Shown here piece after piece: positions 1,189 to 12,284 of a stretch of 64,000 nt of DNA. How positions within the stretch are numbered: the first letter of the stretch is position 1; each line of letters starts with the position of its first letter. The position numbers and the translations under genes were made by a program. The DNA comes from Actinomycetes bacterium (GTDB taxonomy: Bacteria > Actinomycetota > Coriobacteriia > Anaerosomatales > JAGXFU01), in the NCBI GenBank assembly GCA_024637115.1, contig JAGXFU010000010.1:2317-66316 (forward strand), given 5' to 3'. The notes below the pieces were generated by a model that worked only from the letters and a program-made list of their open reading frames with translations, ran no database searches and was not told where the DNA came from.

Positions 1189-1216
1189 ATAATCAACCAC
1201 CGAGGAGGTGAAGACC

Positions 1217-1555
1217 GTGAAAAAGATCGAAGCAGTCATCCGCCCGGAAAAGCTCGACGCAGTGAAGGCCGCGCTTGATACCGCCGGATACCCTGGCATG
1301 ATGCTCACCCGCATCGAGGGGCACGGCAAACAGAAGGGCTTGATGCAGCAGTTCCGCGGTCGTTCGTACAAGGTGGAGATGCTGCCCAAGTACAAGATCG
1401 AAGTCATCTGCGCCGATGGTGAGTGCACCAAGCTCGCCGAGGCCATCATCAACGCCGCACGTACAGGCGAGGTTGGCGACGGCAAGATCTTTGTGAGCGA
1501 CATCTCTGACGTCACACGTATTCGCACCGGCGAATCCGGCGACGTGGCTATCTAG
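1217..1555 (+). CDS. glnK: P-II nitrogen regulatory protein (GlnK-like)
   Basis: KKIEAVIRPEKL, GHGKQKG, TGEVGDGKIF, RIRTGE; GGAGG SD upstream of GTG 1217; directly after amt. Confidence 0.93.
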   Translation: MKKIEAVIRPEKLDAVKAALDTAGYPGMMLTRIEGHGKQKGLMQQFRGRSYKVEMLPKYKIEVICADGECTKLAEAIINAARTGEVGDGKIFVSDISDVTRIRTGESGDVAI

Positions 1556-1566
1556 TTTCACACCCC

Positions 1567-1600
1567 GCAGAACGGGGGGTTTGCCGGCCCCCCGTTCTGC
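1567..1600 (+). other. 13-bp intercistronic hairpin without a U-tract (mRNA stability element or weak terminator)
   Basis: GCAGAACGGGGGG (1567-1579) / CCCCCCGTTCTGC (1588-1600). Confidence 0.6.
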
Positions 1601-1652
1601 ACCCCCCATCACACGGCCATCTGCCTGAGATTCGAACACCCTGGAGCTTCCA

Positions 1653-1991
1653 ATGAAGAAGGTCGAAGCCATATTTCGTCCAGAAAAGCTTGAAGGCGTG
1701 CGCGATGCGCTCGACCAGCTTGAGCGAGCCGGCCTCACGGTGATCGAGGTGAAGGGCCACGGCGTTCAGCGCGGCCTGACCCAGCAGTGGCGCGGAGGCG
1801 AGTACCATGTCTCACTCGTACCCAAGGTTATGGTGTTGAGCGTGGTACACGACCACGAGGTGCAGGAAACGATCGAGACGATCACCTCGGTAGCGCGCAC
1901 CGGACTCATGGGTGATGGAAAGATCTTTGTCACTCCCGTAGAACAGGCGATTCGTATTCGCACGGGAGAGACCGGGCCTCAGGCAATCTAA
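1653..1991 (+). CDS. glnB: Second P-II nitrogen regulatory protein
   Basis: KKVEAIFRPEKL, GHGVQRG, WRGGEY T-loop, GDGKIF, RIRTGE. Confidence 0.9.
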   Translation: MKKVEAIFRPEKLEGVRDALDQLERAGLTVIEVKGHGVQRGLTQQWRGGEYHVSLVPKVMVLSVVHDHEVQETIETITSVARTGLMGDGKIFVTPVEQAIRIRTGETGPQAI

Positions 1992-2029
1992 GCACGATCC
2001 GCAGACCGCTCACTGGTCTCGAGAAACAC

Positions 2030-2056
2030 AAAGACCCGCACATGCGCGGGTCTTTT
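2030..2056. terminator. Bidirectional intrinsic terminator
   Basis: AAAGACCCGC/GCGGGTCTTT stem with T-rich tails on both strands. Confidence 0.8.
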
Positions 2057-2081
2057 CATCTACCTGGGAAGTCCCTTGGAC

Positions 2082-2445
2082 AAGAAAAACCGGGATGGCC
2101 TTCGCACCGCCCGAGGATCCCCTGTAAAGGGATATCATTGAGAGCTCTCGGCCAAGTGAGCTGTTCTACCCTCTTGGCCTCACCCTCGCGTTATCCAGAG
2201 GCTTATGCCCGACTCTTCGGTGGCCCTGACTCATCTTCTCGAAACAACCTCTGCGTCTTCACTGTAGACGCACAATCGAACCGACAACTCTTTTCTTCAC
2301 GTACCAACTCATCCTCTTACGGCCAAACCGAAGGTCTTTATCTGCCATCCCGGCTTAATCCGTGATTCTCTAGCACTTAAGCGATCCTCACCTCTCTATG
2401 GCCGGATCACCACTCTCGGAATCGGTTCGGCTCCACCGACACCTA
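2082..2445 (-). ncRNA. Candidate structured non-coding RNA (~360 nt), family not recognised
   Basis: 10-bp long-range stem 2090-2099/2344-2353 ending in a U-run on minus, several internal hairpins, a cUUCGg loop, bounded by two terminators, no credible ORF. Confidence 0.55.
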
Positions 2446-2490
2446 CCTATATATACCCGCGTTTTCGTATTTCTCCCCATCTCAAAACGA

Positions 2491-2517
2491 CGGACGGCCC
2501 CGATATGGGGCCGTCCG
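2491..2517 (-). terminator. Intrinsic terminator of the rhodanese-thioredoxin gene
   Basis: CGGACGGCCCC/GGGGCCGTCCG 11-bp stem followed by TCGTTTT on minus. Confidence 0.8.
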
Positions 2518-2557
2518 ATACAGTTCTATCGACGAGCGGGTCAAAGCACGCGACGAA

Positions 2558-3271
2558 CTACTTGAGCGCGTCGAGCTGCTTGCGCATCGCGTCCTCGGAC
2601 TGCTCGCCCACCAGTTGTCCGGCGGCCGAACCATCGGTATTCACGAACACGAACGTTGGCACGTACTGCGCGCCATACTGCTCCATCAGAGCCTGTCCCT
2701 CGGCATCTTTGTCCACGTCGAACAAGCGGAACTCGACCTTGCCGTCGTACTCACTCTTTAGCCTGTCCACGACAGGCGCCATTGTCTGGCACGAGGGTCA
2801 CCAATCGGTGTAGAACTCGTAGAGTACGGGCGAATCGAGCGCGACTGCCGGCACGGGCGGCGCAACGGCGACAGCCGTACCGCGCTCAACGTCACCATTC
2901 CATGTGACCATACCTGCGTTGAGGTGGTATACCTCAGAGAACCCGAGCTGCTCGAGGGCCTGGACCGCACTCACGGAGCGCGATCCGGTGGCGCAGTAGA
3001 CAGCGACGGGCTGATTCGGATCCCACGCTGCTGCAGCCGTCGTAAACTCGTTGACAGGCACGTTCTCGGCTGTGGGGATATGTCCGGCCTCATACTCGCC
3101 CGAGGTGCGGACATCGATAATCCGAACCCCCTGTGCCACGAGATCCTGCATTTTGGCCGAATCGACGTTTGCGGTGCCTCCCGCGCCTTGAGGCGTGAAC
3201 AGCATCACGCCCAGGCCCACCAGAACCACCGCTCCGATAATCCAAAAGATCAACTTCTGATTCATTACCAC
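2558..3271 (-). CDS. Membrane-anchored rhodanese-thioredoxin fusion, predicted selenoprotein (UGA at 2798-2800 read as Sec)
   Basis: N-terminal TM; rhodanese DVRT..EY..GHIP and VYCATGSRS; then EFYTDW-TGA-PSCQTMAP in frame with the thioredoxin fold of ORF 2558-2782 (cis-Pro YVPTF). Confidence 0.88.
2761..2777 (-). promoter_or_regulatory. Putative bacterial SECIS hairpin
   Basis: GCCTGTC-GTG-GACAGGC perfect 7-bp stem with G-containing loop, starting 20 nt 3' of the in-frame UGA. Confidence 0.6.
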
Positions 3272-3333
3272 TCCTTGCCCTCCCGCATCCGGTGGAAGGT
3301 CCGGCTCTATGCATGCCCTAGGTTGTTCGAGAC

Positions 3334-3352
3334 ATTATACCCTTGGGGGTAT
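3334..3352 (-). promoter_or_regulatory. -10 TATAAT overlapped by a CsoR/CstR-like operator palindrome
   Basis: ATACCC-TTGG-GGGTAT at 3337-3352; TATAAT on minus at 3334-3339, upstream of the rhodanese-Trx gene. Confidence 0.5.
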
Positions 3353-3488
3353 TCATTCCACAACTTCCCGTCCTGGATGGTGCAGGTCGGGGATAATCAG
3401 GTTCATACGCGCCCTGTCCGTCAGAACAGCAAGTACGTTACCAACAATTAGACTGGGGCGTAGACCAACTACGGCCGAAGGGGACTTA

Positions 3489-6400
3489 GTGAGGATGTCG
3501 AGGCATGCACGCGACAGTGAGACCTCTCCGTTCAGGCAGGAATTCCTGAGCGCTGAAAGGCTAGCCGATAGAGCTCGCGAGCTCGCGGGGTCTCAGCCGA
3601 TGGACTTTGGCACCATCAAAGGGTCCACGCCGTTGAGCGCTCTGATCGAAACTGCGGCTACCTCGCTCTCAGAGCACAATGCCGTGCTCGCTCGCGCCGT
3701 GCGCTTGCAGCATCCGATATCGCCGGCCAGCGAGTGGTTGCTCGACAACTACTACCTGATCGAGGAACAGATCCATGCCATACGCGACGATCTGCCAACG
3801 GGATTCGGCCAGGAGCTACCCTTTCTCACCTCTGGTCCGTACACGCGGCATCCGCGAACCTACGAGGCAGTTGTAACACTCCTTGGCCATTCAGACGCAC
3901 GGGTGGATGAGGAGTATCTCCACCGCTTCATCGAGGGATACCAGGATGTCTCACCTCTCACGATCGGTGAGGTCTGGGCGATTCCGATCATGCTGCGCGT
4001 GGCGCTCGTTGAGAACCTGCGCCGTTTGTCCCATCGGGTGGTAGCAGCGCACAGCGCTGGTCGCGTGGCCGATGAATGGGCGGACCGACTGCTCCTTTCG
4101 GCTCAAGACGAGCCTGATGACCTTCACGATCTCATCGACCAGCTTGAGCACAGCCTCCCCGATGACCTGTCCACATTCTACGTGCGGATGTCTCTGCGCC
4201 TGAGCGGCCAGGACGTTGGCGTCGACCCGATCAACCACTGGCTCGATCGAATGCTGGAGGGAATCGAGCTATCCCTCGACACGCTGTCGCTGGAGCAACA
4301 GCAGATGCAGGCGGCGGACCAGGTCTCGATCGCAAACACGATTACCTCGATCCGCTTCCTCGACGCCTACGAGTGGAAGTCCTTCTTTGAGAAGGTCTGC
4401 TTTGTCGAACAGATTCTGCGACAGGACCCCGTCGGAGTCTACGAGCGCATGGACTTCGCGAGTCGAGACAGGTATCGGCATGCAGTCGAAGACCTCGGGC
4501 GGCGTTGTCCTCACTCCGAGATCGAAGTTGCCGAGGCGGCGATCAGCTGGTGCCTCAATGCCCTCGATGAACACGTCACCGACCCGTTACGCGGACATGT
4601 TGGACACTACCTGATCAGCGGGGGCCGACTGAGCCTCGAGCGCAGCATTGACTACAAACCGCATGGACGCGAGCTTCTCTACCGGGGACCGCTGAGTCAC
4701 CACGGCGTCTTCTACTGGGGACTGTTCGGCATAACGACCACGCTTCTCGCCGGAGTGCTTGCGTTCTGGATGGTCGCGGGCAATGCCTCGCCGGCGGCAG
4801 CGCTCCTGTTACTCATCCTCGCAGTGGTCCCGCTCTCCGATCTCGCGCTCAACATCACGAACCGCATATCCGCCTGGGTGTTCCCGCCTCGGATCCTGCC
4901 CAAGCTCGACTACCACCAGCCGATAGCGGAATCACACCGAACGCTCGTGATCGTTCCCGCACTCATGTCCTCCTCGAGTGCGGTACAGCACGTGATCGAC
5001 AACCTCGAAGTCGCCTATCTGGCCAATCGCGATCCCAACATCGCCTTTGGGCTCCTCGGCGACCTTAAAGGGGCGGCGAAGCAACACGTACCTGCCGATG
5101 CAGAGATCGTCGTTGCGGCCACACGCGGCATCGAGATGCTCAACGATCGCTACGAGGCCGAGCACGGACGACGCCCGTTCTGCCTGTTCATTCGCGGGCG
5201 ACGCCATAACGAGATAGAAGATGTGTGGATGGGCTGGGAGCGAAAGCGTGGCGCGCTGAGCGAACTCAACGCGGCGCTGCGTGGGTCGACCGAGACAAGC
5301 TTCACGGAACGCATCGGCGCATCTGAGTTCCTGGAATCCGTCACATTCGTTCTCACGCTCGATGCCGACACACAACTGCCCAGAGACGGTGCCGCCAAGC
5401 TGATCGCAACCATCTCGCACCCCCTCAACCGGGCACAGCTCGGCCACGACGATGAGCGCGTGCGTAAAGGCTACGGACTCGTGCAGCCCCGCGTGTCGAT
5501 GTCGCTACCCGCCTCGACCGAGTCCTTCTTTGCCTGGCTCTACTCCGGCGAGACGGGCGTCGATCCATACGCGGGTGCTGTCTCTGATACGTACCAGGAT
5601 GTCTTTGGCGAGGGCAGCTTCACCGGAAAAGGTATCTACGAAGTCAACATCTTCAATGCGGTGCTCGAGGGTCGTTTCCCCGACAACACCCTGCTCTCGC
5701 ATGACCTCATCGAAGGCAACTTCGCTCGCGTTGCCCTGGCAAGCGACATCGAAGTGTTCGACGACCACCCCGCAAGTTATCTGTCGCATATGGCTCGTCT
5801 GCACCGGTGGGTCCGTGGCGACTGGCAGACCCTGCCCTGGCTTCTTCTGCGCATACCCGCCAAGGGAGGACGTCACTCTCGCAACCCGCTCTCATCGCTG
5901 CATCGATGGAAGATGACGGACAACCTGCGACGAAGCCTCGTGGCGCCCACGCTTCTGCTGCTCATCACGATTGGCTGGCTGCTCGTGCCGGGCCCATCAT
6001 GGGCATGGCCGCTGGCAATGATGCTTGTGGTGTTCTTCCCGGTCTATTTCAGCCTTGCCGACTCCCTTGTGTTCCGCTCGCGGTCGTTCTCGTTCCAGGC
6101 GGCGGCCGGCACGATCTGGCGTGACTTTGGCCGGGACTCGGCTCGCGCGGTACTCTCGCTGACGCTGCTCCCCCATCAGGCATGGCTCATGACCGACGCC
6201 ATCGTTCGCGCGCTCTGGCGCATGAACGTTTCGCACCACAACCTGCTGGAATGGGAGACGGCCGCAGACGCTGATCGCAGGCTCGGCAACTCGCTCGCGG
6301 GCTTCCTTCGCAAGTTGCTGCCCTCATCACTCCTTGCGCTTGGCCTGCTTGCGATCGCCACTGTCGACCATCCCGGCCGCGCCGGAGTCGCTGCCGCTCT

Positions 6401-9400
6401 CGGACTCATCTGGCTCTCTGCTCCTGTGGTCGCCTGGTGGGTGTCGAGAAAGACCGTTCCGGCTCCTTTCGAGCTCACCGATTCCGATGCCCACGAACTG
6501 CGTATCGTTGCGCGTCGAACCTGGCGGTTCTTTGAGACGTTCGTGACCGAGGAAGGACATTACCTCGCTCCTGACAACTTCCAGGAGGATCCCGGGGCCA
6601 CGATTGCGTTCCGTACCTCTCCCACGAACATTGGACTACAACTGCTCTCGGGGCTCACGGCATACGACCTTGGCTACATCACCCTGCGCGGGCTGATGAT
6701 GCGCACCTCGGACACCATGAACACGATGGCTGGCCTTGAGCGCTTTCGCGGTCACTTCTACAACTGGTATGACACCCGCACGCTGCAACCGCTGCCGCCC
6801 AACTACGTCTCCACAGTAGACAGCGGCAATCTGGCGGGGCATCTGCTTGTGCTCCGCATCGGCCTCCTCGAGGCATCTGAGGGACCGCTCCTGGGCGCAC
6901 AGCTTCTGCATGGCCTCGTTGACACGGCCGACCTTGCCATCGACGACCTGCATACGGAGCGCGGAGACCTTCAGCCCGCGCCGATCGCCCATGCGCTGCG
7001 CGAACAACTCGAAGAGATTCGCCGGGACATCGAACTCGAAAATGAACCTGAGGATCTCGGCGAGTGGTATGCGCTGCTGCGTCGCCTCGACACGTTGGTC
7101 GCTGCCGCTACCGCATCCGTTGGCGAACTGGCTGATGGGCAAGAGACCGGCGAATCGCCCTTCCCTGTCACACCTGTTCAGCGGGTCCGCGCCTCAGTGC
7201 GCGCGCTCGAAAAGTTCACCCACGAAGCACACATGATGCTCCGAAACCTCGCCCCCTGGGCTCCGCTCATCACGAATGTTCCCGACGCCGTACTGCAAGA
7301 CGAACGCAGCAAGGACCTCCTGCCTCTCTTTGAATATGTCCCGAGCCTGGTCGGGCTGGCCGAGGGACTGGCCGAATGCCTCTCTACGCTCGACTCGATC
7401 GCCGCCTCACCTGCTGGCAGCTCTCCAGAAGACCAGGAGTCCGCGCGCGAGTGGGCATCCCGGGTGAGCGAGAGCATTCGCCAATCGCGTCCAAACTCGG
7501 TGGAACTCCTCGCCAGACTGCGCCTCACTGCCAACATGGCCCGTGAGATGTGGGAGCACACCGACTTTCGGATGCTCTTTGACTCTCAACGGTTGCTGTT
7601 CTCGATCGGCTACAACACCACCGAGGGACACCTCGACCCGTCGTTTTATGACATGCTCGCATCCGAATGCCGGCTTGCGAGTTTCCTTGCCATCGCAAAA
7701 GGGGACGTGCCGCAGGAGCACTGGTTCCGTCTTGGCAGATCGATCACGCAGACTTCGGGCGGGCGGGCGCTGCTTTCCTGGAGCGCGTCGATGTTCGAGT
7801 ACCTGATGCCGCTGCTCGTGATGAGAACCTGGCCCACAACCCTGCTCGACCAGACGTACCATTCAGTCGTTGAGCGGCAGGTCCAGTACGGACGCGAACG
7901 CAGTGTGCCGTGGGGCGTCTCGGAATCAGCCTTCAACGCCAAGGATTCTGAGCTCACGTACCAATATCAGGCATTCGGTGTACCCGGCCTGGGCTTGAAG
8001 CGAGGCTTGTCCGATGACATCGTCGTTGCTCCGTATGCGAGCGTACTCTCGTTGCCGATCGCGCCTCTCGAGGTACTCGCCAACCTGCGAGTACTTGCAG
8101 CGCAGGGCGTGCGGGGTCGCTACGGGTTCTATGAGGCAGTGGACTACACGCCCGGGCGTATCCCGGCGGGTGAATCGCGTGCCATCGTAAAGGCCTACTT
8201 TGCCCACCACCAGGGTATGAGCCTGCTCGCACTTGGCAACGAGCTCGCCGGACGCACGATGCGTGAGCGCTTCCATCGCGATCCAATGGTGACCACAGCA
8301 GAGCTCCTGCTGCAGGAACGCGTCCCGCACACCGTGCAGCTCGCCCATCCCAATGTTGAAGAAGTCAGGAGCGTGCGCTCGATTCGCGACCTGCCGCCGC
8401 CTGTTACGCGATCCTATCCACTGGCAGACACCCCGGTGCCCGCCACGCACTTCCTCTCCAACGGTGACTACTCCGTCATGATCACCAACGGCGGGGGTGG
8501 CTACAGCAGATGGCGCGGACTCTCTGTCACCCGATACCGGGAAGATGTCACACGCGACTCATGGGGGCAGTTCTTCTATGTGCGTGACGTCGACACCGGC
8601 GCCGTGTGGACCGCCGCCAACAATCCCGTGGTCAACGAGCCGGACGACTACCACGTGACGTTCTCTGCCGAAAAGGCCGAGTTCCACAGGCGGGATGGAG
8701 ACATCGAGACGAACACCGAGATCGCCGTCTCGCCCGAAGACGATGCCGAGGTTCGCCGCCTCACGATCGTCAATCACGGCCGCTCCGCGCGTCACATCGA
8801 AGTGACCTCGTACTTTGAGATCGCGATCGTCGAGCAAAACGCTGATCAGGCTCATAAGTCATTCTCGAATCTCTTCGTTGAGACCGAGGCCCACAGCGCC
8901 ACCAATACCGTGCTCTTCTCGCGTCGGCCCCGCTCTGAGCATGAATCCCGCCCATACGGATTCCATACACTCGGGTGCGAGGACAGAGACAGCTGTGAGT
9001 GGTCTTTCGAGACCGATCGCGTGCAATTCCTGGGGCGGCTCAATCAGTGCGACAACCCTGTCGCCATCAATGCCGGAGGAGAGCTCTCGTGTACGGTCGG
9101 CGCGGTCCTCGACCCGTCCTGCTCGATTCGCAAAGCCGTCCTCGTACCTCCCGGAGGAAGTGCTCGCCTCGTGTTCACCACCGGGGTTGCCGAAACGCGC
9201 GAAGAGGCCCTGCACCTCTCGGAGAAGTACCACGATATGCGCAGCGCGCAGCGCGCGATCGACCTTGGCTGGACGACCGCAAAGATCGAACTACGCGACC
9301 TGGGACTCTCCCCGCAGGAAGCGGTCGTGCTTCAGCGGCTCGCCTCGCGCCTCTTGTTGACCGATCCCCGATCGTTATTGAAAGTGAAGACGCCGGCTGA

Positions 9401-12284
9401 GAACGGGCTACGCATCGACGGACTCTGGTCGATCGGCATCTCCGGGGACAACCCGATCCTGCTCGTACGCGTCGATGAACTCGAACACGCACCCCTCGTG
9501 CGGCAGGCGCTGCTTGCCCACCAGTACTGGCGACACAAGGGCCTTGTTGCGGATATCGTGATTCTCAACACCCGCCCCACGGCCTATTCCGATGAACTCG
9601 ACAACAGACTACGGCTGCTTGTGCGAACCGGCCATGCACTGCAGCTCATGGACAAGCCGGGCGGTATCTTCCTGCGAAGATCCGATCAGATGCACCCCGA
9701 TGTTCTCAACCTGCTCCTGACCGTGGCGCGCGCGACCCTCGAGGGCGGCGGCGGCGGGCTTGAGGTGCAACTCAACCGCAGAGGGAAACGCCCTGATGAT
9801 CCTCCTGCTCTCGTTGTTTCACGCGCACCTGAGCACTTCGAGCATGCACCATTGGTGCGGCCTGATCTCGACTTCGACAACGGCCTTGGCGGATTCGATC
9901 CTGAGACCGGCGACTATGTGATCGTGCTCAAAGAAGGACAAACCACCCCAGCCCCCTGGATAAACGTCATGGCCACACCGGATTTCGGATGCATGGTGTC
10001 CGAGGCGGGCATTGGCTGCACCTGGGCAAAGAACAGTCACGAGAACCGCATCACGACCTGGAACAACGATGCGGTCTCAGACGGCACCGGCGAGGCACTC
10101 TACATTCGCGACGAAGAAACCGGCGAGTTCTGGAGTCCGACACCGCTTCCCGTCTGCGACGCCGAACCGTACGTTGTGCGTCACGGCAAAGGGTTCACCC
10201 GCTTTGAACACGCTTCGCACGGAATCGAGCAGGAGCTCGAGTGGTTCGTCCCAACGGCAGACCCGGTACGCGTGGCCCGTCTGACCCTGCGAAACGTGAG
10301 TGGCCGCGAGCGGCGTCTGAGCGTGACCCACTTCGTCGAGTGGGTGTTGGGCAGTTCGCGCAGTAAGGCACAGCACGTTGTGGTCACCTGGTTCGACGCG
10401 GAAACGGACATGTTGACCGCCCATAACCACTTCAACATGGACTTCCCCGGTCGTTCCGCGTTCATCGCATGCGACCGTGAGCTCCAGTCGTGGACCGCGA
10501 GCCGCACCGAATTCGTGGGCCGCAACCGCCGCCCTAACGACCCCATTGCGATGCATCGCTCTCGCCTCGATGGTCGTTCGGGCCGCTTCCACGACAACTG
10601 CGGCGCCCTCATGACCGAGATCGTACTGCCGGCGGGCGCCAGCGAGAGCGTCACATTCCTCCTCGGTCAGACCGATACGCTCGATGAAGCGCGCTCGGTG
10701 GTCGCGCGCTACCGGGAACCGGGCTGCGTCAACGATGCCCTCGTGGCGGTGCACGAACAGTGGGACGAGATCCTTGGCAGCGTCACGGTCAAGACGCCTG
10801 ATGCGTCGCTCGATCTCATGGTCAACGGCAATCTGCTCTACCAGTCAGTTGCGTGCCGTTTGTGGGGACGCACCGCCGCGTATCAGAGCAGCGGGGCGTA
10901 TGGATTCCGCGATCAGCTCCAAGACGTGCTGTGCCTCATGCTCACCCGACCTGACCTGGTGCGCGCGCAGATCGTGGAGGCCTCACGTCACCAGTTCGAG
11001 GAAGGCGACGTACTCCATTGGTGGCAGCCATTCTCCGGCCGGGGAGTCCGCACCCGCTTTACCGACGACCGTCACTGGCTGCCCTACGTGGTCGCCGAGT
11101 ATGTGAGCGCAACAGGCGATATGAGCGTACTCGACGAGTTGACGGCCTTCATCGACGGACCTGAACTCGCTCCGGGACATGAGGACAACTATCTGCAGCC
11201 TTCGATCTCCGAGAAAGCTGCAACCGTCTACGAGCACTGCGTTGCCGCTCTTGAATCCGCTCGGGGCACCGGCCCCCACGACCTGCCCCTCATGGGCGGG
11301 GGCGACTGGAACGACGGCATGAATCGCGTAGGACTCGGAGGGACGGGAGAGAGCGTGTGGCTCGGCTGGTTCCTCAACGTGGTCCTCACGCGCTTCGCCA
11401 CCGTCTGCGAGCTGCACGGAGAACCGGATCGAGCCGCGGAGTACCGAACCTGGGCGGCCACACTGATCGAGTCGATCGAGCAAGAAGCCTGGGATGGCGA
11501 GTGGTACCGCCGCGCGTACTTTGACGACGGGACTCCCCTAGGAACGAGCTCCGCCGAGGAGTGCCGCATCGGTGCGATCGCACAGGCATGGGCAACGATC
11601 TCCGGCGCCGGAGACCCGAAACGTGCGGAGCATGCGCTCGACTCAGTGGAGGAGAAACTGGTCCGCCGCGAAGACGGCCTCATCCGTCTGCTCACGCCGC
11701 CATTCGATCACATGCCCCACGACCCCGGCTACATCAAAGGATATGTGCCGGGTGTGCGGGAGAACGGCGGACAGTACACTCACGCCGCCATCTGGGTGGT
11801 GCTTGCACATCTGCTCAGGGGCAACGGTGACGAAGCGGCCGGCCTGTTCCGGCTCATAAACCCGGTCAACCACGGCACTACCCCGCAGGAGGTCGCGCGC
11901 TACAAAGTCGAGCCGTACGTTGTTGCAGCGGACGTGTATGCAGCAGATCCTCATATCGGGCGCGGTGGATGGACCTGGTACACGGGTTCGGCCGGATGGT
12001 TCTATCGCGTGGTCGTGCAGTACCAACTCGGGCTCTGGACCGAGGCAACCGCTGAGGGACGAGCGCTCAGGATCGATCCGTGCATTCCGAAGTCATGGCC
12101 TCGATTCGATATGGAATACCGCTTCGGCGACACGCTCTATCGAATCGCCGTCGAGAACCCCCGTGGAGTCAATCGGGGCGTTGAGCGCGTTACCGTCGAC
12201 GGCACGATCGTCCCCGATGGCCGAATCCCCCTCGATCCCGGCGGAGGGGTACGTGAGGTTCGCGTGACGCTGCTCGGCGGATAG
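3489..12284 (+). CDS. ndvB: Cyclic beta-1,2-glucan synthase (Cgs/NdvB/ChvB-like; GT84 + cyclising domain + GH94 phosphorylase), ~2930 aa
   Basis: EWLLDNYY, GWERKRG, TLDADT, SHDLIEG, RWVRGDWQ, APDNFQE, SWSASMFEYLMP, FRDQLQD, GDWNDG, ENGGQYTHAA, WTWYTGSAGW; start likely GTG 3489 or ATG 3495. Confidence 0.93.
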   Translation: MRMSRHARDSETSPFRQEFLSAERLADRARELAGSQPMDFGTIKGSTPLSALIETAATSLSEHNAVLARAVRLQHPISPASEWLLDNYYLIEEQIHAIRDDLPTGFGQELPFLTSGPYTRHPRTYEAVVTLLGHSDARVDEEYLHRFIEGYQDVSPLTIGEVWAIPIMLRVALVENLRRLSHRVVAAHSAGRVADEWADRLLLSAQDEPDDLHDLIDQLEHSLPDDLSTFYVRMSLRLSGQDVGVDPINHWLDRMLEGIELSLDTLSLEQQQMQAADQVSIANTITSIRFLDAYEWKSFFEKVCFVEQILRQDPVGVYERMDFASRDRYRHAVEDLGRRCPHSEIEVAEAAISWCLNALDEHVTDPLRGHVGHYLISGGRLSLERSIDYKPHGRELLYRGPLSHHGVFYWGLFGITTTLLAGVLAFWMVAGNASPAAALLLLILAVVPLSDLALNITNRISAWVFPPRILPKLDYHQPIAESHRTLVIVPALMSSSSAVQHVIDNLEVAYLANRDPNIAFGLLGDLKGAAKQHVPADAEIVVAATRGIEMLNDRYEAEHGRRPFCLFIRGRRHNEIEDVWMGWERKRGALSELNAALRGSTETSFTERIGASEFLESVTFVLTLDADTQLPRDGAAKLIATISHPLNRAQLGHDDERVRKGYGLVQPRVSMSLPASTESFFAWLYSGETGVDPYAGAVSDTYQDVFGEGSFTGKGIYEVNIFNAVLEGRFPDNTLLSHDLIEGNFARVALASDIEVFDDHPASYLSHMARLHRWVRGDWQTLPWLLLRIPAKGGRHSRNPLSSLHRWKMTDNLRRSLVAPTLLLLITIGWLLVPGPSWAWPLAMMLVVFFPVYFSLADSLVFRSRSFSFQAAAGTIWRDFGRDSARAVLSLTLLPHQAWLMTDAIVRALWRMNVSHHNLLEWETAADADRRLGNSLAGFLRKLLPSSLLALGLLAIATVDHPGRAGVAAALGLIWLSAPVVAWWVSRKTVPAPFELTDSDAHELRIVARRTWRFFETFVTEEGHYLAPDNFQEDPGATIAFRTSPTNIGLQLLSGLTAYDLGYITLRGLMMRTSDTMNTMAGLERFRGHFYNWYDTRTLQPLPPNYVSTVDSGNLAGHLLVLRIGLLEASEGPLLGAQLLHGLVDTADLAIDDLHTERGDLQPAPIAHALREQLEEIRRDIELENEPEDLGEWYALLRRLDTLVAAATASVGELADGQETGESPFPVTPVQRVRASVRALEKFTHEAHMMLRNLAPWAPLITNVPDAVLQDERSKDLLPLFEYVPSLVGLAEGLAECLSTLDSIAASPAGSSPEDQESAREWASRVSESIRQSRPNSVELLARLRLTANMAREMWEHTDFRMLFDSQRLLFSIGYNTTEGHLDPSFYDMLASECRLASFLAIAKGDVPQEHWFRLGRSITQTSGGRALLSWSASMFEYLMPLLVMRTWPTTLLDQTYHSVVERQVQYGRERSVPWGVSESAFNAKDSELTYQYQAFGVPGLGLKRGLSDDIVVAPYASVLSLPIAPLEVLANLRVLAAQGVRGRYGFYEAVDYTPGRIPAGESRAIVKAYFAHHQGMSLLALGNELAGRTMRERFHRDPMVTTAELLLQERVPHTVQLAHPNVEEVRSVRSIRDLPPPVTRSYPLADTPVPATHFLSNGDYSVMITNGGGGYSRWRGLSVTRYREDVTRDSWGQFFYVRDVDTGAVWTAANNPVVNEPDDYHVTFSAEKAEFHRRDGDIETNTEIAVSPEDDAEVRRLTIVNHGRSARHIEVTSYFEIAIVEQNADQAHKSFSNLFVETEAHSATNTVLFSRRPRSEHESRPYGFHTLGCEDRDSCEWSFETDRVQFLGRLNQCDNPVAINAGGELSCTVGAVLDPSCSIRKAVLVPPGGSARLVFTTGVAETREEALHLSEKYHDMRSAQRAIDLGWTTAKIELRDLGLSPQEAVVLQRLASRLLLTDPRSLLKVKTPAENGLRIDGLWSIGISGDNPILLVRVDELEHAPLVRQALLAHQYWRHKGLVADIVILNTRPTAYSDELDNRLRLLVRTGHALQLMDKPGGIFLRRSDQMHPDVLNLLLTVARATLEGGGGGLEVQLNRRGKRPDDPPALVVSRAPEHFEHAPLVRPDLDFDNGLGGFDPETGDYVIVLKEGQTTPAPWINVMATPDFGCMVSEAGIGCTWAKNSHENRITTWNNDAVSDGTGEALYIRDEETGEFWSPTPLPVCDAEPYVVRHGKGFTRFEHASHGIEQELEWFVPTADPVRVARLTLRNVSGRERRLSVTHFVEWVLGSSRSKAQHVVVTWFDAETDMLTAHNHFNMDFPGRSAFIACDRELQSWTASRTEFVGRNRRPNDPIAMHRSRLDGRSGRFHDNCGALMTEIVLPAGASESVTFLLGQTDTLDEARSVVARYREPGCVNDALVAVHEQWDEILGSVTVKTPDASLDLMVNGNLLYQSVACRLWGRTAAYQSSGAYGFRDQLQDVLCLMLTRPDLVRAQIVEASRHQFEEGDVLHWWQPFSGRGVRTRFTDDRHWLPYVVAEYVSATGDMSVLDELTAFIDGPELAPGHEDNYLQPSISEKAATVYEHCVAALESARGTGPHDLPLMGGGDWNDGMNRVGLGGTGESVWLGWFLNVVLTRFATVCELHGEPDRAAEYRTWAATLIESIEQEAWDGEWYRRAYFDDGTPLGTSSAEECRIGAIAQAWATISGAGDPKRAEHALDSVEEKLVRREDGLIRLLTPPFDHMPHDPGYIKGYVPGVRENGGQYTHAAIWVVLAHLLRGNGDEAAGLFRLINPVNHGTTPQEVARYKVEPYVVAADVYAADPHIGRGGWTWYTGSAGWFYRVVVQYQLGLWTEATAEGRALRIDPCIPKSWPRFDMEYRFGDTLYRIAVENPRGVNRGVERVTVDGTIVPDGRIPLDPGGGVREVRVTLLGG

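Follow-up and report, generated by a model that had tools for sequence, protein, structure and literature searches.

The raiA motif RNA (RF03072), a stand-alone multi-helix bacterial noncoding RNA (ncRNA) of roughly 200 nucleotides (nt) with many invariant bases, is reported from Actinomycetota, including Coriobacteriia, in PMC10861870. According to the accounts in PMC9723947, PMC12054373 and PMC12286853, the OLE RNA works as a ribonucleoprotein; OLE, ROOL and GOLLD are conserved stand-alone RNAs with complex folds, which occur in anaerobes or extremophiles and were known before their function. Here we describe an RNA that resembles these systems, encoded at approximately 2441-2084 on the minus strand of a 64,000-nt stretch (hereafter the window) of contig JAGXFU010000010.1, from the actinomycete assembly GCA_024637115.1 (Coriobacteriia, Anaerosomatales). 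This region is quite probably an independent gene for a stable, highly structured ncRNA of a family not described so far. The new RNA shares with raiA its general size, its several helices, its stand-alone character and its many invariant bases, but the two have no sequence or model similarity (the sequences are unrelated by eye), and the taxonomic range of the new RNA is much narrower. It is conserved, complex-folded and stand-alone like OLE, ROOL and GOLLD, whereas its core measures 150-290 nt against about 600 nt or more, none of their models match it, and it has no adjacent partner-protein gene that is conserved across lineages.

The RNA gene lies in the spacer between a P-II gene (1653-1991, plus strand) on one side and a thioredoxin-like open reading frame (ORF; 2558-2782, minus strand) on the other. 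A first-pass annotation of this DNA, made from the letters and an ORF list, had called the spacer ORF-poor and enclosed by two terminators. Indeed, the listing holds no convincing ORF between 1991 and 2558, and terminator-like hairpins were found at 2030-2055 and 2491-2517. The conserved RNA core, as delimited by BLAST, nhmmer and covariance-model matches, spans 2084-2357 on the minus strand and is 274 nt long here and 149-290 nt in homologues; the gene as a whole encodes an RNA of about 270-360 bases and is present in a single copy in the source genome. The extent 2082-2445 given by the first-pass annotation is a good fit to the inferred primary transcript. The minus strand folds with -153 kcal/mol (z -3.4, 0 of 100 shuffles as good), and folding of the plus strand is weaker (-115 kcal/mol, z -2.2).

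We performed a search for known RNA families using Rfam 15 (4227 families). At gathering scores the whole window yields only a tRNA, located elsewhere, and at E<=10 the region 1950-2620 gives weak matches to the two terminator hairpins and nothing else. Ten homologous loci from other lineages have no Rfam match on the RNA either. The RNase P, small signal recognition particle (SRP), 6S, transfer-messenger (tmRNA) and raiA RNAs of the source genome are all found above cut-offs on other contigs, in agreement with the first-pass statement that the candidate could not be matched to tmRNA, RNase P, SRP or raiA signatures. The raiA model (RF03072, gathering score 101.3 bits) does not match the locus, not even at E<=10. 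The bona fide raiA motif RNA of the genome scores 167 bits at C10:34351-34575 (L150:1501-1725) and has a -10-like box, GTGGTAGAAT, just upstream.

The first-pass annotation had considered an RNA that binds RNA polymerase. Ms1-type RNAs occur in Actinomycetota, and the size and probable abundance of the new RNA are compatible with a 6S-like or Ms1-like role. However, RF00013 does not match the locus, the canonical 6S RNA (53.8 bits) is encoded elsewhere in the genome, and the conserved fold is branched around a three-way junction instead of forming a rod with a central bubble, which makes this role highly improbable. No paper describing the RNA came up in full-text searches, and the supplements of published surveys could list the motif under another name; the main text of a survey of ncRNAs in 50 genomes (PMC11109978) contains no Coriobact-, Actinobacteria, Actinomycetota, rhodanese or thioredoxin. 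Since neither an Rfam family nor a describing paper was found, we rate the RNA as a new family; the type of object, a conserved structured bacterial ncRNA, is a familiar one, which tempers the claim.

The consensus fold was obtained with RNAalifold on a plain MAFFT alignment of 20 homologues (A1), and the resulting covariance model (R1) comprises 270 positions and 49 base pairs. Already in the first prediction on that plain alignment, 25 of the 49 pairs show compensatory changes. In 51 independent public sequences 94.1% of the cells are paired and 30 of the 49 pairs have double-sided changes; none of 500 shuffles reaches any of five measures, and sliding the partner strand by 1-3 columns lowers pairing to 30-53%. 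A wider set, with 8 short forms and 13 distant homologues, gives 92.9% paired cells and double-sided changes in 40 of the 49 pairs, again with 0 of 500 shuffles as good. Conservation and covariation had been named as the check for the candidate, and this analysis revealed homologues across the order and compensatory pair changes that support the fold.

The RNA is closed by helix P1, in which 2344-2355 (5' strand) forms 12 base pairs with 2099-2088 (3' strand), followed by a U-rich run at 2087-2080. P1 is paired in 96.7% of the cells and has double-sided changes in 7 of its 12 pairs among the 51 sequences and in 11 of 12 in the wider set. The 10-bp long-range stem of the first-pass annotation (2090-2099 with 2344-2353) is part of this helix. 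P1 is joined to P2 by the purine-rich joiner J1/2 (2337-2343), which reads AGAUAAA here and AGAUGAA in the consensus and forms invariant or near-invariant columns in sets of 20 and 38 sequences. P2 pairs 2327-2336 with 2211-2221 and covaries in 8 of 10 pairs, or in all 10 in the wider set; its two strands had been taken for two local hairpins, an ACC-UUCG-GU tetraloop and a CCGA-AGAG-TCGG loop, and are really the two sides of one long-range, covarying helix. Inside P2 lies a variable peripheral domain (2222-2326) with a GGUUCGA-like motif and the TGCGTCT/AGACGCA hairpin (2252-2272), which is present as annotated. Homologues differ in the length of this domain, which can be almost 0 or reach about 130 nt, and MAFFT with RNAalifold on 46 sequences gave no order-wide common fold for it; it splits into sub-families. 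A natural 149-nt form lacks P2 entirely.

P3 pairs 2195-2208, which carries the invariant GGCAUAAG motif, with 2104-2116, and contains an AA bulge. Neither its 5' strand element GGCA.AAG nor the CG.UGC.AAGG motif of the 3' strand and the joiner J3/1 (2100-2116) varies in any of 38 diverse sequences. The distal arm P4-P5-P6 occupies 2140-2187, with P4 at 2187-2182/2145-2140 and P5 at 2179-2173/2156-2150, and double-sided changes were observed among the 51 sequences in 4 of the 6 pairs of P4 and in 4 of the 5 pairs of P5. The P7 hairpin (2120-2131) is extended by one more covarying pair, which is the top pair by mutual information. Two hairpins noticed at first pass, GGCCAAG/CTTGGCC (2150-2156/2173-2179) and ATCCC/GGGAT, correspond to P5 and P7, respectively. 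P1, P2 and P3 meet in a three-way junction, and the RNA has about 40 invariant bases that are concentrated in the joiners J1/2 and J3/1 and in P3. Beside P1, AGAUGAAG and GAAGG would face each other and could form tandem sheared G-A pairs. Mutual information with average product correction over 60 distinct sequences returned the known helix pairs and the P7 extension only, and no pseudoknot. A few column pairs in loops and joiners co-vary in parallel register; these look phylogenetic.

Two further explanations were considered. The first is that the conserved object is a small-protein gene, the 29-codon ORF at 2259-2348, or else the 5' leader or riboswitch of a downstream gene. The ORF exists, and a few relatives have a same-strand gene downstream. 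However, among 60 distinct homologues the start codon is ATG in 36, GTG in 9, GCG in 7, ACG in 5 and a gap in 3, so that it is absent in 15, and it changes in step with its P1 partner. Homologous ORFs are 7-57 codons long with no similarity past residue 7. The ORF is therefore refuted as the conserved object, and conservation as that ORF only, the outcome that would have undone the ncRNA claim, was not what the homologues showed. As to a leader or riboswitch, the downstream genes differ and are often convergent, terminators follow the RNA, and no alternative-pairing platform was seen. The probability that we assign to this whole explanation is next to nil.

The second explanation, raised as a possibility at first pass, is a CsrB-like RNA that sequesters a protein through repeated GAG/GGA motifs. 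The minus strand does hold 19 GAG triplets in 2145-2433, as had been counted, while the plus strand has 2 and not about 5. Mononucleotide shuffles of the minus-strand segment have a mean of 9.8 (standard deviation 2.9), and 6 of 2000 reach 19. Like CsrB and RsmZ, the RNA is purine-rich and GAG/GGA-rich, but in the source genome alone: over 84 aligned homologue rows the mean is 7.7 GAG in sense against 5.1 in antisense, and there is a single GAG position that 70% or more of the sequences retain. What is conserved is a fixed, branched, multi-helix fold and not repeated loops. In addition, a search for CsrA (PF02599) that was positive in the controls E. coli, B. subtilis and T. maritima gave no match in the 92%-complete genome. 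The sponge mechanism is thus largely refuted and very improbable.

The distribution of the RNA was traced by several searches, in which the genomes sampled were those of Actinomycetota. BLAST against 41 genomes, the source genome and 40 relatives, gave matches in 31, with a conserved part at approximately 2088-2361. A 26-nt degenerate pattern of the 3' end retrieved 54 public contigs, 51 of which match R1 at 125-246 bits and are labelled Coriobacteriia, Anaerosomatales, Actinomycetota or similar. The other three (Bacteroidales, Neomegalonema, Tahibacter) have no R1 match and were taken as chance. Within the same, Anaerosomatales-like order, R1 detects the RNA in 62 of the 68 genomes sampled, one copy each. 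The other orders of the class were represented by 83 genomes, and R1 detects it in none of these, save for one 44-nt fragment of 19.9 bits. R2, a model of the 3' domain built from more diverse sequences and with only 7 base pairs, likewise gives 62 of 68 and 0 of 83. Five of the six R1-negative genomes of the order were searched again and stayed negative, but one of them carries a diverged copy at the expected place, with 50.5 bits when the filters are off.

Sampling across the phylum brought up two more lineages in which R1 has matches that are weak but span the full length. Lineage-centred searches, a two-motif pattern and R2, followed by checks with R1, then yielded diverged homologues of 185-230 nt outside the class in at least 17 genomes from at least 8 families, with R1 scores of 17-54 bits. 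These distant homologues keep P1, the joiner AGAUGAAG, GGCA.AAG, the P7 hairpin and CG.UGC.AAGG. Three weak R2 matches (f33, f48 and f65) are further candidates that stand outside the 17-genome count. The two-motif pattern by itself occurs in 35 of 401 phylum genomes and its reversed control is about as frequent; when its loci were checked with R1 (filters off), 7 of 24 were real. Matches of this pattern to viral contigs (at least 120 loci) gave no R1 match among the 80 listed and were discarded as chance. One distant genome may carry the 3' domain a second time, in a shorter version (G307:C43:100129-100225, R2 33.8 bits).

The gene appears to have transcription signals of its own. The candidate -10 box of the first-pass annotation is present at 2450-2458 on the minus strand as GGGTATATA, and its core is conserved in homologous leaders: the motif GGGTAYA, approximately 95-110 nt 5' of P1, is invariant or conserved to at least 90% across all 35 leaders of the order that were aligned. 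From its position, transcription would start at about 2441. The tmRNA gene of the source genome has an identical GGGTATATA box approximately 70 nt upstream, and similar -10 boxes precede its RNase P, SRP, 6S and raiA genes. The box and the leader of about 70 nt that the tmRNA gene and the new RNA have in common suggest that the stable RNAs of this organism share a type of promoter and the processing of a precursor. The resemblance to tmRNA further includes a single-copy gene and 5' and 3' ends that pair, but the new RNA has neither a tRNA-like domain nor a tag frame, and RF00023 and ARAGORN (run on 1900-2700) find nothing.

The 5' leader (2356-2441, minus strand) contains, in the 35 aligned leaders, a hairpin of variable sequence and then a near-invariant GAGGUGA (here 2394-2388), located approximately 35-50 nt before P1. 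It is missing from the minimal 149-nt form and from the distant homologues, where a TATAAT-like box lies approximately 20-25 nt before P1; the leader is therefore an order-specific addition. Pairing of the leader GAGGU with a core ACCUC was considered and rejected, the leader being invariant while the core site varies (AACCUC, CGACUC, GCCUC and others) with no covariation. Tiny ORFs after the Shine-Dalgarno-like GAGGUGA were also rejected, as their frames and lengths differ between loci (by eye).

At the 3' side, the hairpin at 2030-2056 (both strands) is a two-way terminator common to the RNA and the convergent P-II gene. In printed folds inspected by eye, most homologues of the order have a strong hairpin and a T run 10-40 nt past P1, and in low-GC distant homologues a U run follows P1 directly, such that P1 itself looks like the terminator stem there. 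The RNA has its own terminator, as a stand-alone ncRNA gene should. On the other side, the hairpin at 2491-2517 (minus strand) is the terminator of the upstream rhodanese-thioredoxin gene and separates that gene from the RNA promoter box; inspection by eye showed comparable elements, a hairpin with a T run, in 8 or more of 18 intergenic sequences of relatives.

Public sequencing runs were also examined. In a public-run index, part of the stretch occurs in 16 runs, and 15 of these are filed under RNA. The four best runs, from four studies and filed as metatranscriptomic (one of them, X1, is flagged as probably DNA), were mapped on 1200-3400. All four have contigs of 200-320 nt on 2090-2373, including a 269-nt contig that covers 2105-2373 with 2 differences and a 253-nt contig that covers 2095-2347. 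Other contigs match the conserved ends only and differ in the middle, and represent relatives; past P1 they extend for 38-80 nt in the 5' direction, and for no more than 23 nt in the 3' direction. These extents fit a discrete RNA with a leader, as weak evidence. The four runs have no contigs on 1200-2087 or 2384-3400, which has no bearing on the expression of the neighbours.

The syntenic neighbour of the RNA, which is not part of it, is a rhodanese-thioredoxin fusion gene at 2558-3271 on the minus strand. The ORFs 2798-3271 (a rhodanese with an N-terminal membrane anchor) and 2558-2782 (thioredoxin-like) form one frame across an in-frame TGA (2798-2800) within a W-U-P-S-C motif. The product is likely a selenocysteine-containing rhodanese-thioredoxin fusion. 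Of 19 loci examined, 18 retain the TGA, in a W-U-x-x-C motif. A GUG-loop hairpin that begins 23 nt past the TGA is a candidate selenocysteine insertion sequence (SECIS), and SelA is encoded in the source genome. Several thioredoxin-like genes with an in-frame TGA were noticed in distant genomes too.

Of 38 loci of the order, 34 have the fusion gene upstream of the RNA and in the same orientation. Two of the four loci without it have less than 300 nt of flank, and the other two (L104 and L112) are real exceptions, with 1,200 nt of upstream flank and no match at E<=1e-3. The downstream neighbour varies. The amt/P-II operon, on which the first-pass annotation had described the RNA as convergent, faces it in only 9 of 20 loci, and elsewhere Mnh, EamA, DNA-alkylation repair, BNR and other genes take its place; a pairing of the RNA with this operon is not a conserved feature. 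Of the five re-checked R1-negative genomes of the order, three also lack the fusion gene, and the R1-negative genome that has a full fusion gene is the one with the diverged RNA copy.

This arrangement raises the question of a cis or locus-specific element of the selenoprotein gene, that is, a 3'-untranslated-region-like RNA made by read-through or processing and acting on mRNA stability, localisation or UGA recoding. The constant upstream gene beside a changing downstream neighbour, the retention of the TGA, the coincident absence of RNA and fusion gene in three of five re-checked genomes and the diverged RNA copy in the one of them with a full fusion gene speak for such a role. Against it, a terminator and the conserved -10 box stand between the fusion gene and the RNA, and L104, L112 and the five distant genomes tested have the RNA without the fusion gene; the five distant genomes show thioredoxin-domain matches only. 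Bacterial SECIS elements sit directly 3' of the UGA, whereas the RNA begins more than 440 nt past the TGA and approximately 200 nt past the stop codon, beyond the terminator, and the separate hairpin described above already occupies the expected place of a SECIS. We consider a cis role improbable. Outside the order the RNA genes adjoin unrelated trp/VanZ, tsaE/UDG or Lon genes. The linkage to the fusion gene is therefore genuine inside the order but does not characterise the family as a whole.

In some relatives the new RNA gene adjoins tRNA or 16S rRNA genes, a further resemblance to stable-RNA genes such as that of tmRNA. Three of five genomes of family f56 (L125, L126 and L127) have it 220-520 nt upstream of, and in the same orientation as, a 16S rRNA gene, and in the other two (L291 and L292) no rRNA was seen within the flank. 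In one genus of the order (L019, L037 and L068), a tRNA gene with its own TATACT-like box was seen by eye 3' of the RNA on the same strand, and Rfam found a tRNA at L103:2476-2548. In a small class around G170 (L098, L100 and L101), a T-box leader of 94-111 bits was observed on the minus strand at approximately 1060-1393, divergent from the RNA gene and about 110 nt from it; this leader belongs to an operon of the tryptophan pathway or of a pyridoxal-phosphate enzyme.

The first-pass view of an undescribed large minus-strand ncRNA is therefore well supported by the lack of an Rfam match, the order-wide and wider conservation, the covariation, the promoter box, the terminator and the contigs. 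Several points weigh against an independent RNA gene with a function of its own. The assembled contigs carry neither strand nor true ends, and DNA may be carried over into RNA libraries. The pair counts come from alignments that had been fitted to the model, a procedure that favours its structure. A generic sigma-70 scan gave no full -35/-10 promoter at the locus. Five of the 68 genomes of the order show no copy, such that the RNA may be dispensable, and its near-constant place behind one protein gene (34 of 38 loci) could reflect a cis or locus-specific role. Finally, the results fit a ribonucleoprotein, an aptamer and a ribozyme alike.

If the RNA is real, the mechanism that we prefer, tentatively and at somewhat under even confidence, is that it serves as the RNA subunit or scaffold of a ribonucleoprotein; the probability left over after all the rival explanations goes to a real RNA with another mechanism. 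The RNA would act in trans, because its gene neighbours outside the order are unrelated, and probably together with a protein or a ligand. Its function would reside in the invariant junction core, where GGCAUAAG paired with CG.UGC, AGAUGAAG and GAAGG would make up a site of specific binding or an active site. As accessory parts, the variable domain and the leader would only stabilise or process the RNA.

The junction core would also suit a stand-alone ligand-sensing or catalytic RNA, in which the three-way junction would serve either as an aptamer pocket or as an active site, with no dedicated protein involved, for example a sensor that changes its own stability, or a ribozyme. A closing P1, invariant joiners and variable peripheral helices are an architecture typical of aptamers and small ribozymes, and riboswitch aptamers with a three-way junction, in particular, likewise have a closing P1, junction bases that do not vary and a peripheral helix that does. 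The core can be as short as 149 nt with the invariant joiner bases retained, and the doubling of P1 as a terminator stem in low-GC homologues makes a coupling of folding and termination possible. However, the RNA lies outside a 5' untranslated region, there is no expression platform, no conserved downstream or regulated gene and no clue to a ligand in the neighbourhood, Rfam gives no riboswitch or ribozyme match, and neither sequence nor fold shows sign of a cleavage site. An RNA of this kind is an unlikely explanation, although it comes next after the ribonucleoprotein and is a better one than a cis element.

Beyond the trans-acting ribonucleoprotein, we put forward a broader scenario, which as a whole is rather doubtful. 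The RNA would represent a new functional-RNA class (ribonucleoprotein subunit, ribozyme or aptamer) that is ancestral to anaerobic, small-genome, deep-branching Actinomycetota, was lost in the other, partly host-associated, orders of Coriobacteriia, and became coupled in the Anaerosomatales-like order to an exported rhodanese-thioredoxin selenoprotein of sulfur/selenium redox.

Two further features of the surrounding DNA were recorded. A G/C-rich inverted repeat at 1561-1605 (CAGAACGGGGGG ... CCCCCCGTTCTG) lies between the tandem P-II genes (1208-1555 and 1653-1991) and may act inside the amt-P-II-P-II operon as a terminator or attenuator. A single ORF of 2,991 codons occupies 3309-12284 on the plus strand and starts right after the divergent rhodanese-thioredoxin gene.

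To our knowledge, few bacterial RNAs combine such size, so many invariant bases and such covariation, and the comparable RNAs that we know of proved to be ribozymes, riboswitches or ribonucleoprotein cores, or remain problems (raiA, OLE, ROOL and GOLLD). The new family adds such a problem in little-studied anaerobes of the subsurface and of sediments, the Coriobacteriia and neighbouring deep Actinomycetota. Its natural size variants of 149-290 nt already outline a minimal core. Its patchy spread, near-universal in one order and found in 0 of 83 genomes of the sister orders, and its linkage to a selenoprotein gene are handles on its function. Cultured members of the order exist, as reported in PMC9686372, which makes direct testing possible.

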